Below, piece after piece: positions 6,724 through 30,715 of a stretch of DNA of 64,000 nucleotides. The notes below the pieces were generated by a model, which worked only from the letters and a program-made list of their open reading frames with translations, was not told where the DNA came from and made no database searches. A program made the translations under genes and the position numbers. Each line of letters opens with the position of its first letter. Position 1 is the first letter of the stretch. The stretch lies in assembly GCF_036507355.1 (NCBI RefSeq), contig NZ_AP027877.1; one strand, given 5' to 3'. The stretch comes from Escherichia coli (lineage in GTDB: Bacteria; Pseudomonadota; Gammaproteobacteria; Enterobacterales; Enterobacteriaceae).

Positions 6724-7317
6724 TTACCCCTTCATCCACATTCGAATGCCGTCGAGGAACATCTGGGTTGCCATCATCACCAGAATCAATCCCATCAGGC
6801 GTTCAAGTGCGTTCACCCCTTTCTCGCCCAGCAGACGTAAAAATAGCGAAGACTGTAGCAGGATGACAAAGGTGCCGCCCCAGGCCAGCAGCAGAGCAAT
6901 CACCAGATGTCCCATCTGATTCGGGTACTGATGAGACAACAACATCAGCGTGGCGAGAATAGTTGGCCCGGCGACCAGCGGAATTGCCAGCGGCACGATA
7001 AATGGCTCTTCACCTGCCGGAAGCCCGCTGCTATTTCCTGAAGCGCTGGGGAAAATCATCTTAATGGCAATTAGAAACAGAATGATGCCGCCAGAAATGG
7101 AGACGGTTTCTGCTCGTAGGCTGAGAAATGCCAGAATTTTCTCACCCGCAAACAGGAACACCAGCATCACCAGGAGAGCAATAAGCAACTCTCGCACCAT
7201 GATTGCCCGCCGTCTTTTCGGTTCAGTATGTTTCAGTACGGACATGAAAATAGGTAGGTTTCCGAGCGGATCCATAATCAGGATCAATAAAACTGCTGCA
7301 GAAATGATTTCATTCAT
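6724..7317 (-). CDS. yhgN: MarC-family (UPF0056) inner membrane protein
   Basis: 197-aa hydrophobic ORF; synteny. Confidence 0.85.
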   Translation of the reverse strand: MNEIISAAVLLILIMDPLGNLPIFMSVLKHTEPKRRRAIMVRELLIALLVMLVFLFAGEKILAFLSLRAETVSISGGIILFLIAIKMIFPSASGNSSGLPAGEEPFIVPLAIPLVAGPTILATLMLLSHQYPNQMGHLVIALLLAWGGTFVILLQSSLFLRLLGEKGVNALERLMGLILVMMATQMFLDGIRMWMKG

Positions 7318-7508
7318 AACTCAAATTCCCTGATAATTGCCGCGGACTTTCTGCGTGCTAACAAAGCAGGATAAGTCGCATTACTGATGGCTTCGCTATC
7401 ATTGATTAATTTCACTTGCGACTTTGGCTGCTTTTTGTATGGTGAAAGATGTGCCAAGAGGAGACCGGCACATTTATACAGCACACATCTTTGCAGGAAA
7501 AAACGCTT

Positions 7509-8612
7509 ATGAAAAATGTTGGTTTTATCGGCTGGCGCGGTATGGTCGGCTCCGTTCTCATGCAACGCATGGTTGAAGAGCGCGACTTCGACGCCATTCG
7601 CCCTGTCTTCTTTTCTACTTCTCAGCTTGGTCAGGCTGCGCCGTCTTTTGGCGGAACCACTGGCACACTTCAGGATGCCTTTGATCTGGAGGCGCTAAAG
7701 GCCCTCGATATCATTGTGACCTGTCAGGGCGGCGATTATACCAACGAAATCTATTCAAAGCTTCGTGAAAGCGGATGGCAGGGTTACTGGATTGACGCAG
7801 CATCGTCTCTGCGCATGAAAGATGACGCCATCATCATTCTTGACCCCGTCAATCAGGACGTCATTACCGACGGATTAAATAATGGCATCAGGACTTTTGT
7901 TGGCGGTAACTGTACCGTAAGCCTGATGTTGATGTCGTTGGGTGGTTTATTCGCCAATGATCTTGTTGATTGGGTGTCCGTTGCAACCTACCAGGCCGCT
8001 TCCGGCGGTGGTGCGCGACATATGCGTGAGTTATTAACCCAGATGGGCCATCTGTATGGCCATGTAGCAGATGAACTCGCGACCCCGTCCTCTGCTATTC
8101 TCGATATCGAACGCAAAGTCACAACCTTAACCCGTAGCGGTGAGCTGCCGGTGGATAACTTTGGCGTGCCGCTGGCAGGTAGCCTGATTCCGTGGATCGA
8201 CAAACAGCTCGATAACGGTCAGAGCCGCGAAGAGTGGAAAGGGCAGGCGGAAACCAACAAGATCCTCAACACATCTTCCGTAATTCCGGTAGATGGTTTA
8301 TGTGTGCGTGTCGGGGCATTGCGCTGCCACAGCCAGGCATTCACTATTAAATTGAAAAAAGATGTGTCTATTCCGACCGTGGAAGAACTGCTGGCTGCGC
8401 ACAATCCGTGGGCGAAAGTCGTTCCGAACGATCGGGAAATCACTATGCGTGAGCTAACCCCAGCTGCCGTTACCGGCACGCTGACCACGCCGGTAGGCCG
8501 CCTGCGTAAGCTGAATATGGGACCAGAGTTCCTGTCAGCCTTTACCGTGGGCGACCAGCTGCTGTGGGGGGCCGCGGAGCCGCTGCGTCGGATGCTTCGT
8601 CAACTGGCGTAA
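7509..8612 (+). CDS. asd: Aspartate-semialdehyde dehydrogenase
   Basis: Matches remembered Asd [21 protein letters not shown]...; the ORF-track start at 7449 is an upstream in-frame extension. Confidence 0.9.
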
Positions 8613-22825: not shown

Positions 22826-22862
22826 ATGCCTGATGCGGCGTGAATGCCTTCTCAGGCCTACA
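22826..22862. repeat. REP element (gcctgatgcggcgtgaatgccttctcaggcctac)
   Basis: Matches the REP consensus pattern GCCTGATGCGRCG...GGCCTAC; downstream of glpD. Confidence 0.7.
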
Positions 22863-22895
22863 AAATCATGCAAATTCAATATATTGCATAAACCA

Positions 22896-22928
22896 CGTAG
22901 GCCTGATAAGCGTAGCGCATCAGGCAAT
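22896..22928. repeat. REP element, inverted relative to the preceding copy (BIME-like pair)
   Basis: gtaggcctgataagcgtagcgcatcaggc. Confidence 0.7.
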
Positions 22929-25901: not shown

Positions 25902-26660
25902 ATGAAACAAACACAACGTCACAACGGTATTATCGAACTGGTTAAACAGCAGGGTTATGTCAGTACCGAAGAGCTGGTAGAGCATTTCTCCGTCAGCCCG
26001 CAGACTATTCGCCGCGACCTCAATGAGCTGGCGGAGCAAAACCTGATCCTGCGCCATCACGGCGGTGCGGCGCTGCCTTCCAGTTCGGTTAACACGCCGT
26101 GGCACGATCGCAAGGCCACCCAGACCGAAGAAAAAGAGCGCATCGCCCGTAAAGTGGCGGAGCAAATCCCCAACGGCTCGACGCTGTTTATCGATATTGG
26201 CACCACGCCGGAAGCGGTGGCGCACGCGCTGCTTAATCACAGCAATTTGCGTATTGTCACCAACAATCTCAATGTTGCTAACACGTTGATGGTAAAAGAA
26301 GATTTCCGCATTATTCTCGCCGGTGGCGAATTACGCAGCCGCGATGGCGGGATCATTGGCGAAGCGACGCTCGATTTTATCTCCCAGTTCCGCCTTGATT
26401 TCGGCATTCTGGGGATAAGCGGCATCGATAGCGACGGCTCGCTGCTGGAGTTCGATTACCACGAAGTTCGCACCAAACGCGCCATTATTGAGAACTCGCG
26501 CCACGTTATGCTGGTGGTCGATCACTCGAAATTTGGCCGTAACGCGATGGTCAATATGGGCAGCATCAGCATGGTAGATGCCGTCTACACCGACGCCCCG
26601 CCGCCAGTAAGCGTGATGCAGGTGCTGACGGACCACCATATTCAACTGGAGCTGTGCTGA
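25902..26660 (+). CDS. glpR: DeoR-family glycerol-3-phosphate regulon repressor
   Basis: 252 aa from MKQTQRHNGIIELVKQQGYVSTEEL... Confidence 0.9.
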   Translation: MKQTQRHNGIIELVKQQGYVSTEELVEHFSVSPQTIRRDLNELAEQNLILRHHGGAALPSSSVNTPWHDRKATQTEEKERIARKVAEQIPNGSTLFIDIGTTPEAVAHALLNHSNLRIVTNNLNVANTLMVKEDFRIILAGGELRSRDGGIIGEATLDFISQFRLDFGILGISGIDSDGSLLEFDYHEVRTKRAIIENSRHVMLVVDHSKFGRNAMVNMGSISMVDAVYTDAPPPVSVMQVLTDHHIQLELC

Positions 26661-28240
26661 TCCTGCACGGCTTCCCACGTCAGACCAAAACGCGCCAGGT
26701 ATTTGCGTAGCCGATCCGCGTCATTGACGCTGGCTTTGCCCTGGCGCGAAACGTCAAAAAGCTGGCGTCCGGCTGCGGAAAGCGACTTTGCCTGGCGGCA
26801 GATTGCGATAACGTGTTCCAGTTGCATACGGTCGAAGAGATCGATGTTTTCTGCCTCTGCGCCCAGCAACGCCGTAAGCGCGGAGGGGCGGCTCTCCTGC
26901 CAGTTATAGCGCAGACGGTTTATCTCATCTTCAACCACGTCCAGAGTAATGCGTCCGCTAGAGGCAAAGGTTGCCATTCGCGTGACGCTGGCAGAAAGCT
27001 CGCGAAAGTTACCGCGCCATGTTGCCTGGGGAGATGTCGCAAAGGCCAGCCAGGCGCGCCGCGCTTCGGTGTTAAAACGCACGCTGTCGCCGGTGAGTGA
27101 AGCGTGGCGCTCCACTTCATAATCCAGGTTAGGTTCAATATCTTCCTGACGCTGGCGTAGCCCCGGCAGGGTGAAGGTCCAGAGATTGATCCGCGCGTAT
27201 AGATCTTCGCGGAATTTGCCATCGGCAACCAACTGGCGTAAATCGCGCACCGTTCCGGCGATGAGCTGAAAATCACTGCTCACCTGGCGATCGCTGCCAA
27301 ACGGGTAAAAGTTTTTCTCTTCAATGGCTTTCAGCAGCATTGCCTGTTCGTCTGCGCCCAGTTCGCCAATCTCATCAAGAAACAACATCCCACCGTTGGC
27401 GCTACGTAATAATCCTTCACGGGATTCCCGCGCCCCGGTAAACGCGCCTTTTACATGACCAAACAGCGTCGACATGGCGGTATCGCCACGCAAGGTAGCG
27501 CAGTTCACTTCCACAAACGCGCCGCTAAACTGATGCCGCGCCTGTTTTAATTCGAAAATGCGTCGTGCCAGAAACGACTTACCCGCACCGGTCGGGCCGT
27601 TAAGCAGGATCGGTGCGCGGGATTTAATCGCCACTTTTTCAATCTGCTCAATCATGCGGTTGAAGTGGGGGTTACGCGTGGCAATGCCGGACTTAAGAAA
27701 ATCAAGCGTTTGCTGGCGTTCCTCGGCAAAGCGGCTGGCGATGGCGTTATAACGGCTTAGATCGAGATCGATAATCGTCACTTCACCTGAGCCGCGCGGT
27801 TGTTCTTTTTTGCGCGGAGGTGAAGATTGTATCAACCGGGCGGGTAGATAACGCGCTTCCGCCAGCAGAAACCAGCAAATCTGCGCGACGTGGGTGCCGG
27901 TGGTGATGTGAATTAAATAGTCTTCTTTTTCTGGCTGAAACTCGTAACCACGGGCGAAATCATGCAGGCAGGCGTAAACCTCTTCGAAATCCCACGGGTT
28001 ATGCAGTTCAATCTCAACGCTCACCACTTCTGTTTCTGGCGAAACGCTGGCGATATCGCGTTTAAGCGTTTCAAATAGCGAGCGCGAGCGGGCGTCATGC
28101 AATAATTCCAGTCGATCGATGACCAACGATTCTTGCTGGCATAAACAAAGCGTCGGACGCCATTTCGACCAGCGCTGACTGCCGCGCCCGGCATAATCCA
28201 GCACCGTTCCGACAAAGCCAAAAGCCACTGTTTTACGCAT
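26642..28240 (-). CDS. rtcR: Sigma-54-dependent transcriptional activator of rtcBA
   Basis: 532 aa from [18 protein letters not shown]...; AAA+ sigma-54 interaction domain (GAFTGA-like), C-terminal HTH. 3' end overlaps the glpR 3' end by 19 nt. Confidence 0.9.
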
Positions 28241-28372
28241 CTTAGATATCCTTATAAAAGACGATATTTCATTATCGGTAAATCGGCTTTGCGGGAAATC
28301 TCCGGTTACGGACGTAAAGATATAATCTTTTTTAAAACAATGAGTTAAAAAATTAATCTGCTTATTTAATTT

Positions 28373-28391
28373 TCTGGCACGACGGTTGCAA
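28373..28391 (+). promoter_or_regulatory. Sigma-54 promoter (-24 TGGCAC / -12 TTGCA) for rtcBA
   Basis: ctggcacgacggttgcaat with canonical GG-N10-GC spacing, 36 nt upstream of the rtcB ATG. Confidence 0.85.
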
Positions 28392-28426
28392 TTATCAGGA
28401 CATACCAACGAAAAGAGAAAAACAAA

Positions 28427-29653
28427 ATGAATTACGAATTACTGACCACTGAAAATGCCCCGGTAAAAATGTGGACCAAAGGCGTGCCGGTAGAAGCCGA
28501 TGCGCGTCAGCAACTTATTAATACGGCGAAGATGCCGTTTATTTTCAAACATATTGCGGTAATGCCTGATGTACACCTGGGTAAAGGTTCCACCATTGGT
28601 AGCGTGATCCCGACCAAAGGGGCGATTATTCCGGCGGCGGTGGGCGTGGATATCGGTTGTGGAATGAACGCACTACGTACCGCTTTAACGGCGGCAGATC
28701 TGCCTGAAAACCTGGCGGAGCTGCGTCAGGCGATTGAAACGGCCGTGCCGCACGGGCGTACTACCGGACGTTGTAAACGTGATAAAGGCGCATGGGAAAA
28801 CCCGCCTGTTAACGTCGATGCGAAATGGGCTGAGCTGGAGGCCGGTTATCAGTGGTTAACGCAAAAATATCCGCGTTTCCTTAACACTAACAACTATAAA
28901 CACCTGGGAACGCTGGGAACGGGTAACCACTTTATTGAAATCTGCCTTGATGGGTCGGACCAGGTGTGGATTATGCTGCACTCCGGTTCACGCGGAATTG
29001 GTAACGCTATCGGGACTTACTTTATCGATCTGGCGCAAAAAGAGATGCAGGACCAACTTGAGACGTTGCCGTCGCGTGATCTGGCGTACTTTATGGAAGG
29101 TACGGAATACTTTGATGATTACCTAAGAGCCGTGGCCTGGGCGCAGCTTTTCGCCAGCCTTAACCGCGATGCGATGATGGAAAACGTGGTAACGGCGTTG
29201 CAGAGCATTACGCAGAAAACGGTCAGACAGCCACAAACGCTGGCGATGGAAGAGATCAACTGTCACCACAACTATGTGCAAAAAGAACAGCACTTTGGTG
29301 AAGAGATCTATGTGACGCGTAAAGGCGCGGTGTCTGCGCGTGCTGGTCAATATGGAATTATTCCAGGGTCGATGGGAGCGAAAAGCTTTATCGTCCGTGG
29401 GCTGGGAAATGAAGAGTCGTTCTGTTCGTGCAGCCACGGTGCCGGGCGGGTTATGAGCCGTACTAAAGCGAAAAAAATGTTCAGCGTGGAAGATCAAATT
29501 CGTGCCACCGCGCATGTGGAATGCCGTAAAGATGCCGAAGTGATCGACGAAATCCCGATGGCGTATAAAGATATTGATGCGGTGATGGCGGCACAAAGCG
29601 ATCTGGTGGAAGTTATCTATACCCTGCGTCAGGTGGTGTGCGTAAAAGGATAA
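28427..29653 (+). CDS. rtcB: RNA-splicing ligase RtcB
   Basis: 408-aa ORF; conserved His and Cys metal-ligand motifs. Confidence 0.95.
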   Translation: MNYELLTTENAPVKMWTKGVPVEADARQQLINTAKMPFIFKHIAVMPDVHLGKGSTIGSVIPTKGAIIPAAVGVDIGCGMNALRTALTAADLPENLAELRQAIETAVPHGRTTGRCKRDKGAWENPPVNVDAKWAELEAGYQWLTQKYPRFLNTNNYKHLGTLGTGNHFIEICLDGSDQVWIMLHSGSRGIGNAIGTYFIDLAQKEMQDQLETLPSRDLAYFMEGTEYFDDYLRAVAWAQLFASLNRDAMMENVVTALQSITQKTVRQPQTLAMEEINCHHNYVQKEQHFGEEIYVTRKGAVSARAGQYGIIPGSMGAKSFIVRGLGNEESFCSCSHGAGRVMSRTKAKKMFSVEDQIRATAHVECRKDAEVIDEIPMAYKDIDAVMAAQSDLVEVIYTLRQVVCVKG

Positions 29654-30673
<1,020 letters not shown>

Positions 30674-30686
30674 TATAAAGATGTAA

Positions 30687-30710
30687 GCCGGATCCAATGC
30701 ATTATCCGGC
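30687..30710. terminator. Palindromic REP-like hairpin (gccggat...atccggc) between convergent rtcA and malT
   Basis: Inverted repeat seen in sequence. Confidence 0.5.
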
Positions 30711-30715
30711 TAAAC

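Follow-up and report, generated by a model that had tools for sequence, protein, structure and literature searches.

The RNA-repair control region of Escherichia coli beside glpR: the sigma-54 promoter of rtcBA and a probably neutral overlap of rtcR with glpR

Knowledge of the sigma-54 promoter of rtcBA and of its activator, RtcR, dates back to 1998 (Genschik, Drabikowski & Filipowicz 1998, as cited by later papers). The dependence of rtcBA transcription on rpoN and RtcR is experimentally established in E. coli and Salmonella. The closest described systems are rtcR/PrtcBA of E. coli K-12 (Engl 2016, PMC5175333; Kotta-Loizou 2022, PMC9650030) and rsr-yrlBA-rtcBA of Salmonella Typhimurium, which is under RtcR (Samuels 2013, PMC3844500; Hughes 2020, PMC7790460; PMC9879122). 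A divergent rtcR is common to both.

The DNA analyzed here is a 64-kb stretch of Escherichia coli (GCF_036507355.1, contig NZ_AP027877.1), below called the window. It contains the RNA-repair control region, that is, rtcR and the sigma-54 promoter for rtcBA, beside glpR. The genes, their order, the promoter hexamers and the 19-nt overlap of rtcR with glpR are identical to those of K-12. Protein identity to K-12 is 99% for RtcR and 98.5% for RtcB. The DNA of rtcR diverges by about 4%, and there are a few intergenic substitutions. glpR is intact in this strain, whereas it is annotated as a frameshifted pseudogene in K-12 MG1655. The Salmonella-type loci share the distance between the promoter and rtcR, the IHF-type site and the convergence of glpR with rtcR. 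They differ in that rsr (Ro60) and Y RNAs separate the promoter from rtcB, and in the RtcR tail and the overlap, which is 4 nt (TTAA) or 38 nt.

glpR occupies positions 25,902–26,660 on the plus strand and ends with TGA at 26,658–26,660. According to its translation and the RefSeq annotation, it encodes the DeoR-family repressor of the glycerol-3-phosphate regulon (252 aa), with the Pfam domains HTH_DeoR and DeoRC, and the protein is 100% identical to GlpR of strain 100416. rtcR lies on the minus strand at 28,240–26,642, with its TGA at 26,644–26,642, and encodes a sigma-54 enhancer-binding protein of 532 aa (translation, RefSeq annotation). Its true start is the ATG at 28,240, versus the TTG at 28,408 of the longest open reading frame. 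RtcR contains both the N-terminal RtcR/CARF domain (PF06956, residues 2–185, E = 7.6e-86) and an AAA+ sigma-54 interaction domain (Sigma54_activat, PF00158, residues 187–354, E = 8.6e-51) with the GAFTGA loop motif, and AAA_lid_14 is also matched. Its C-terminus gives no Pfam HTH match at E <= 0.001. The last ~50 residues are conserved among homologues, and an HTH in the C-terminus is stated in the literature (PMC7790460). The RNA ligase gene rtcB (28,427–29,653, plus strand, 408 aa, PF01139) is followed by the RNA 3'-phosphate cyclase gene rtcA (29,654–30,673, plus strand, PF01137 and PF05189). The rtcA coordinates refer to the open reading frame from the first ATG; the start in the K-12 annotation is one codon later. 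No Rfam family was found within 25.8–30.8 kb of the window.

The sigma-54 promoter of rtcBA, TGGCAC-N5-TTGCA, is located at 28,375–28,390 on the plus strand (sequence TGGCACGACGGTTGCA), 37 nt before the rtcB ATG at 28,427. Direct reading gives T28375 GGCAC28380, gacgg and T28386 TGCA28390, which places GG at -25/-24 and GC at -13/-12, the two doublets being 10 bp apart. The 64-kb window contains a single exact match to the pattern versus 0.06 expected from shuffles, at least one match being seen in 6 of 100 shuffles. In all nine enterobacterial loci aligned, the promoter is invariant as CTGGCACG-N3-GTTGCAA, and the element is found in Iodobacter too. ChIP-chip shows sigma-54 binding at the orthologous promoter of Salmonella, TGGCACGCTGGTTGCAAT. 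The initial annotation had proposed a canonical sigma-54 promoter at this position upstream of rtcB, and its sequence, uniqueness and conservation confirm it.

The transcription start of rtcBA is predicted at C28401 on the plus strand, 12 nt past the C of the -12 GC. A28400-C28401 matches the ApC primer (-1/+1) used for the native rtcBA promoter (PMC9650030). The predicted leader is 26 nt long and unstructured (0 kcal/mol by folding), and contains the conserved block CAACGAAAAGAGAA. For rtcR itself, the scan returned no sigma-70 promoter above its threshold; rtcRp is of the sigma-70 type according to the literature.

Two upstream elements are seen in addition. One is the palindrome CGATA-tttcat-TATCG at 28,262–28,277, centered at -131.5 from the predicted start. 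It lies 22–37 nt upstream of the rtcR ATG, i.e., in the leader of rtcR itself. The palindrome is unchanged and at the same position in nine enterobacterial loci. A related CGATA-N6-TATC is present in a Pseudomonas locus (L010), and GATA/TATC repeats are present in other taxa. The other is an IHF-like site, AAACAATGAGTTA, at 28,335–28,347 on the plus strand, centered at -60 and matching WATCAANNNNTTR at 12 of 13 positions. Perfect-consensus IHF sites are found at -50 to -62 in Salmonella-type, Superficieibacter, Iodobacter, Accumulibacter and Pseudomonas loci. An IHF site in the rtcBA promoter is stated in PMC9650030, and the existence of an upstream activating sequence (UAS) is stated in the literature including the same paper; the accessible text of the papers stating a UAS does not give its sequence.

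The gene of the enhancer-binding protein adjoins the promoter, and both upstream elements are conserved in position. As far as the aligned sequences tell, the promoter architecture (-24/-12 element, IHF-like site at -60, palindrome at -131) is conserved across Enterobacteriaceae. This conservation suggests that CGATA-N6-TATCG is the likely RtcR enhancer, and the invariant palindrome singled out by cross-genus footprinting is one useful point of the present analysis. Activated RtcR would most likely bind the palindrome ~131 bp upstream of the rtcBA start. The DNA would be bent by IHF at about -60, consistent with the site and with the literature, and RtcR, using ATP, would open the sigma-54 holoenzyme at TGGCAC-N5-TTGCA, with transcription of rtcBA starting at C28401.

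At the other end of rtcR, the gene overlaps glpR tail-to-tail by 19 nt (26,642–26,660, sequence TCAACTGGAGCTGTGCTGA). The rtcR stop had been noted to fall inside the last codons of glpR, and direct reading and translation bear this out. Both coding sequences translate full-length and each is supported by homologues; glpR and rtcR are a convergent overlapping pair of two intact genes. Within the overlap, the two frames share their third codon positions. The RefSeq annotation of K-12 MG1655 has the identical 19-nt overlap (rtcR 3558268–3559866, glpR 3559848–3560605), and it is also annotated in strain 100416 (RefSeq). The overlap is real and already annotated. That it is an annotation artefact, with one of the proteins truly ending earlier, is hardly credible. 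The last six RtcR residues do fall outside the part conserved in distant homologues, but the sequence itself dictates the stop codons, no earlier in-frame stop is present in either gene, the C-terminus of GlpR is conserved through its last residue, and even the shortest variants of the locus retain an overlap of 4 nt.

Comparison among genera might shed light on the origin of the overlap. All enterobacterial loci examined have glpR and rtcR next to each other, tail-to-tail, and the arrangement with zero spacer is kept in Escherichia, Klebsiella, Intestinirhabdus, Superficieibacter and Salmonella-type loci. The identical 19-nt overlap is seen in four other Escherichia species and K. oxytoca, and the substitutions among the loci with this overlap are synonymous in both frames. 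Between genera, the overlap length is 4, 19, 35 or 38 nt. The GlpR end QLELC* is invariant across the enterobacterial loci. The RtcR tails are DQHSSS, ISTAPAEYGDR, ISTIPAVYGGRR, KEMAN and LQN, and correspond to overlaps of 19, 35, 38, 4 and 4 nt, respectively. For non-enteric RtcR proteins, whose genes have no glpR neighbor, the alignment breaks off at about residue 526. The conserved part of RtcR stops ~3 nt from the glpR stop.

The last six codons of rtcR (DQHSSS) are most likely an unconserved extension that reads on into the antisense of the glpR end, up to the first in-frame stop. Because the tail appears to be such an unconserved read-on, the 19-nt overlap is best read as a neutral outcome of the stop-codon position, probably held by selection on GlpR. 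The variation in length (4, 19, 35 and 38 nt) would arise because the unconserved tail meets a stop at differing places. This resembles the model of Kingsford, Delcher & Salzberg (2007, cited in PMC3887535), in which convergent overlaps arise by random 3' extension. In the model as cited there, the overlap likewise reaches to whichever in-frame stop comes next in the neighbor's antisense, and the length shifts between lineages via frameshift or stop mutation; no difference from the present locus was noted. Selection conserving the length of 19 nt itself was rejected, owing to the overlaps of 4, 35 and 38 nt in other genera. As a counterpoint to neutrality, the zero spacing conserved across five genera also fits selection for the arrangement.

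The initial annotation further stated that no terminator can separate glpR and rtcR. This is trivially true of an overlapping pair, and the junction shows neither a terminator signal above chance nor an unusually stable structure. No G+C-rich hairpin with U (and A) tracts was found there. A cryptic intrinsic terminator, possibly bidirectional, could lie within the coding sequences near the junction and end both transcripts. A hairpin of 9–10 bp spans the glpR stop (GAGCUGUGC...GCACGGCUUC), and weak terminator-like matches are seen at 26,829–26,843 (plus strand) and 26,148–26,136 (minus strand). However, the hairpin has no U tract behind it and is absent as a conserved feature in K. oxytoca. 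The consensus scan found 4 terminator-like matches near the junction versus 4.3 expected, and the folding energies on both strands are the same as those of shuffles (z = -0.36 and +0.23). Given the chance-level scan and the z-scores near 0, intrinsic terminators near the junction were rejected. Moreover, the termination measured on the glpR strand is Rho-dependent, and the lists of Adams 2021 (eLife, PMC7815308) include no curated Term-seq 3' end for glpR or rtcR. Such a terminator is very improbable.

As the two genes leave no space for a terminator between them, transcripts of glpEGR would run into the antisense of rtcR. The 3'-end mapping called for by the initial annotation is, for the glpR strand, already covered by the public data of Adams 2021, which is another useful point, and these data place a Rho termination region inside the rtcR antisense. 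Supplementary file 2 of that study lists the region at K-12 3559514 on the minus strand, 334 nt past the glpR stop (score 8.9, p = 2.7e-27), with 29 downstream reads without BCM versus 256 with BCM (about nine-fold). By gapless alignment (490 of 501 nucleotides identical), this position corresponds to 26,994 on the plus strand of the window; the termination is measured in K-12 and is thereby predicted for the analyzed strain. In K-12, glpEGR transcripts do enter the rtcR antisense and are ended by Rho a few hundred nucleotides downstream, a situation shared with many other E. coli genes. The transcripts of rtcR presumably end likewise within the glpR antisense; for the rtcR strand inside glpR, the lists of Adams 2021 contain no 3' end or Rho region. 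The C:G ratios downstream of both stops are 0.8–1.3, modestly C-rich, and C:G skew as an indicator of rut sites past each stop was uninformative.

It can be speculated that the convergence without spacer is a selected device, in which Rho-tuned read-through from glpEGR lowers rtcR via polymerase collision or cleavage of the duplex by RNase III. If so, the glycerol regulon or Rho activity would be coupled to the RNA-repair response. The transcription on the glpR strand reaching the rtcR antisense, the roughly nine-fold rise downstream under Rho inhibition and the zero-spacer adjacency conserved in five enterobacterial groups are consistent with it. There is also a precedent in E. coli, the convergent pair mscL-arfA with RNase III-dependent crosstalk (PMC10070815). 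The transcripts of mscL and arfA overlap at their 3' ends and a regulatory effect is demonstrated there, whereas in glpR-rtcR the coding regions themselves overlap, with glpR-strand RNA over the rtcR 3' end in K-12.

Several facts argue against such a device, which is unlikely. Neither the length of the overlap nor the tail of RtcR is conserved, rtcR has no glpR neighbor outside Enterobacteriaceae, and most of the gene has been lost in about 11% of complete E. coli genomes. Over-expression of the Rho inhibitor Rof raises PrtcBA activity (PMC9650030), opposite to the prediction of simple interference. Among the Rho termination regions of E. coli, the antisense class is the largest (51.5%; Adams 2021), so the region antisense to rtcR is not special. 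Rho-terminated read-through antisense to a convergent neighbor is itself described (Adams 2021; Peters 2012, as cited there); the region downstream of glpR is published, and nothing distinctive was seen in it relative to the cited accounts. Papers mentioning both rtcR and glpR merely list them, with no expression link, and the literature search found no paper functionally linking the two genes and none on an rtcR antisense RNA. It is quite doubtful that Rho-gated read-through (~330 nt into rtcR) from constitutive glpEGR acts as a cis-antisense brake keeping RtcR scarce, with the missing spacer being selected. The RNA-repair response would then receive input from Rho activity or from transcription of the glycerol regulon. 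The earlier suggestion of transcriptional interference or antisense pairing stands insofar as glpR-strand RNA enters the rtcR antisense (K-12, Adams 2021), but a special significance is unsupported.

Taken as a whole, the locus is very probably explained by the rtc control region, a neutral overlap and read-through ended by Rho. The finding is ordinary: the promoter, activator and operon are textbook knowledge, and all E. coli annotations include the overlap. Beyond correct annotation its importance is slight, the overlap following the expectation of neutral theory.

One point against this reading concerns the strain in which termination was mapped. The frameshift of glpR in MG1655 could change ribosome coverage and Rho loading relative to an intact glpR.

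The locus is matched by 5425 of 5426 complete E. coli genomes, with a top identity of 99.0%. In the RefSeq annotation of the best match and K-12 MG1655, the gene order is glpD / glpE-glpG-glpR > < rtcR / rtcB-rtcA > < malT. GlpR contains the Pfam domains HTH_DeoR and DeoRC. RtcR contains the RtcR/CARF domain (PF06956), the sigma-54 interaction domain (PF00158) and the AAA lid, and its translation shows the GAFTGA loop. RtcB and RtcA belong to the expected Pfam families; the 408-codon ORF of rtcB begins at ATG 28427. The upstream TTG of the longest rtcR ORF was rejected as the start, and the true start is ATG 28240 according to the RefSeq annotation, giving 532 aa. The rtcR DNA (26760–28240) is 95.9% identical to that of K-12 and 93.8–96% to those of many E. 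coli, while the protein is 99% identical.

The stop codons of glpR (TGA, 26658–26660, plus strand) and rtcR (TGA, 26644–26642, minus strand) lie such that the two ORFs have 19 nt in common (26642–26660). This tail-to-tail overlap was described with exact coordinates in the initial annotation, and it is already annotated in the best match and K-12 MG1655. rtcR loci were collected from species-representative genomes plus two protein look-ups, and all enterobacterial loci among them have glpR and rtcR side by side, convergent and without a spacer. The overlap is 19 nt, with the RtcR tail DQHSSS*, in four other Escherichia species and Klebsiella oxytoca. It is 35 nt in Intestinirhabdus (ISTAPAEYGDR*), 38 nt in a Salmonella enterica variant (ISTIPAVYGGRR*), and 4 nt in both Superficieibacter (RtcR ending in KEMAN*) and the rsr-containing Salmonella-type locus L025 (TTAA; RtcR ending in LQN*). 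These size differences are explained by three observations. GlpR ends with QLELC* in all compared loci. Non-enteric RtcR proteins, which have no glpR neighbor, are alignable only to around residue 526 (…TWEAVQ), followed by unrelated short tails. The codon of residue 526 is 3 nt from the glpR stop in the window, and therefore the RtcR body abuts glpR. The last six RtcR codons simply continue across the antisense strand of the constrained 3′ end of glpR as far as the first stop. In the overlap, the two reading frames share their third codon positions, and the few substitutions among the loci with 19-nt overlaps are synonymous in both genes. As judged from sequence comparison, the pattern fits in all points observed the prediction of the random 3′-extension model of convergent overlaps, as this model is cited in PMC3887535 (Kingsford 2007).

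A one-base insertion in the overlap (26642–26660) reproduces the tail of the public 636-aa RtcR variants P0001 and P0008; the same insertion would extend GlpR to 269 aa. One cluster of 636-aa variants comprises 14 NCBI members. Antisense to glpR, the alternative frame is open for 104 codons.

The initial annotation also held that no terminator can separate glpR and rtcR. There is indeed no intergenic room, and terminator scanning and folding reveal none hidden nearby. Terminator-like matches at 25.8–28.7 kb are no more frequent than chance (4 found vs. 4.3 expected), and folding across the junction is not better than shuffles on either strand (z = −0.36 and +0.23). A hairpin over the glpR stop was rejected as a terminator: it is without a U tract and is not kept in K. 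oxytoca. Of the 3′-end mapping proposed for both genes, published data supply the glpR (plus) strand. In the list of Adams et al. 2021 (eLife), the minus (glpR) strand of K-12 has a Rho termination region at 3559514 that is categorized as rtcR antisense, with a Rho score of 8.9 (p = 2.7e-27) and downstream read coverage of 29 without and 256 with bicyclomycin. By gapless mapping it corresponds to 26994, 334 nt beyond the glpR stop. Thus, as measured in K-12, transcription of the glpR strand continues antisense through at least the final ~330 nt of rtcR before Rho ends it. Antisense regions are the largest class of Rho termination regions in that study (51.5%). MG1655 glpR (6849–7606 of locus L002) is annotated as a frameshifted pseudogene, whereas glpR here (25902–26660) is intact with 252 aa, which matters for transferring K-12 transcript maps. 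For the rtcR (minus) strand, the lists of Adams et al. 2021 contain no Rho or 3′-end entry inside glpR; we infer that rtcR-strand transcripts terminate inside glpR in antisense.

Unlike the spacer-less glpR/rtcR junction, the convergent pair rtcA/malT has a 42-nt spacer (30674–30715) with an 8-bp hairpin, AGCCGGAT-N10-ATCCGGCT (30683–30708), possibly a terminator for one or both genes. The closest strain, 100416, carries a TacA antitoxin and a GNAT toxin pseudogene between rtcA and malT (L001 7936–8690), an insertion absent from the window and K-12.

The initial interpretation of the region is supported as far as it goes. It is quite improbable that the glpR-strand antisense serves as a cis-antisense brake on rtcR. 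The mscL-arfA pair offers a precedent and the spacer-less adjacency is kept in five genera, but neither the overlap length nor the RtcR tail is conserved, no paper tying glpR and rtcR functionally was found, and over-expression of the Rho inhibitor Rof raised, not lowered, PrtcBA activity (PMC9650030). Moreover, of 5425 complete E. coli genomes, roughly 590 (about 11%) have lost most of rtcR and have only a 3′ fragment. At least three different deletions are seen (L021 2560–3200, L022 2377–3163 and L023 2383–2700, corresponding to 26642 to about 27040). One removes the entire rtcR-rtcBA, with a REP-like element after malT; another extends from rtcR to rtcA (UPEC U12A); the third is internal to rtcR and retains rtcBA. 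In all three types, glpR is intact and the overlapping 3′ end of rtcR is still present.

The sigma-54 promoter of rtcBA consists of TGGCAC (28375–28380), five bases and TTGCA (28386–28390), 37 nt upstream of ATG 28427, exactly as initially annotated. The window contains a single copy of this 16-nt pattern; dinucleotide-preserving shuffles give an expectation of 0.06. This promoter is already known, established since 1998: rtcBA expression needs it and RtcR (PMC9650030, PMC5175333, citing Genschik et al. 1998), and these papers place an RtcR UAS and an IHF site in the control region. Despite its canonical sequence the E. coli promoter is reported to be very weak in vitro (PMC9650030). In Salmonella, the orthologous promoter, TGGCACGCTGGTTGCAAT, precedes rsr; ChIP-chip shows sigma-54 bound to it, and it is sigma-54 dependent (PMC3844500). 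The same sequence is present in L025. ApC (−1/+1) served as a primer on the native promoter (PMC9650030), and A28400-C28401 falls exactly 12 nt past the C in the GC at −12, which makes C28401 the predicted start. The predicted leader is 26 nt and unstructured by folding. A conserved block, CAACGRAA…GRGA (28405–28418), lies just 5′ of the start codon in every enterobacterial locus, regardless of the downstream gene, and probably includes the ribosome-binding site.

Three conserved blocks are recognized across nine aligned enterobacterial intergenic regions. The promoter block, CTGGCACG-N3-GTTGCAA, is unchanged in all nine. The A+T-rich middle part contains an IHF-like site, AAACAATGAGTTA (28335–28347; center −60), that differs from WATCAANNNNTTR at one position. 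The consensus is matched perfectly at −50 to −62 in Salmonella-type, Superficieibacter, Iodobacter, Accumulibacter and Pseudomonas loci. The invariant block adjoining rtcR contains the palindrome CGATA-N6-TATCG (28262–28277; center −131.5), whose exact sequence occurs only once in the window. One Pseudomonas locus has a near-identical CGATA-N6-TATC, and other taxa have related GATA/TATC repeats. On these sequence grounds, we infer the palindrome to be the RtcR enhancer. Since it sits 22–37 nt 5′ of the rtcR ATG, RtcR bound to this candidate could also act on rtcR's own sigma-70 promoter, mentioned in PMC9879122, or on its leader.

Intestinirhabdus (L007 933–1174) has two and Superficieibacter (L018 843–1216) three tandem YrlA Y-RNA-like genes in the interval from rsr to rtcB, a placement like that in the Salmonella rsr-yrlBA-rtcBA operon; none is found in the window. 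Escherichia is without an rsr remnant. In K. oxytoca, a 27-codon ORF starting with MANLLQFRS (L006 2729–2812) lies between the sigma-54 promoter and rtcB. It resembles the rsr start (MANPLLFRS/P) of L025 and Intestinirhabdus, and looks like an rsr remnant after the loss of rsr and Y RNAs. Elsewhere in the window, the sRNAs RyhB (1400–1464; 83 bits) and ES036/CssrF (22862–22904; 43.6 bits) match Rfam above the gathering score.
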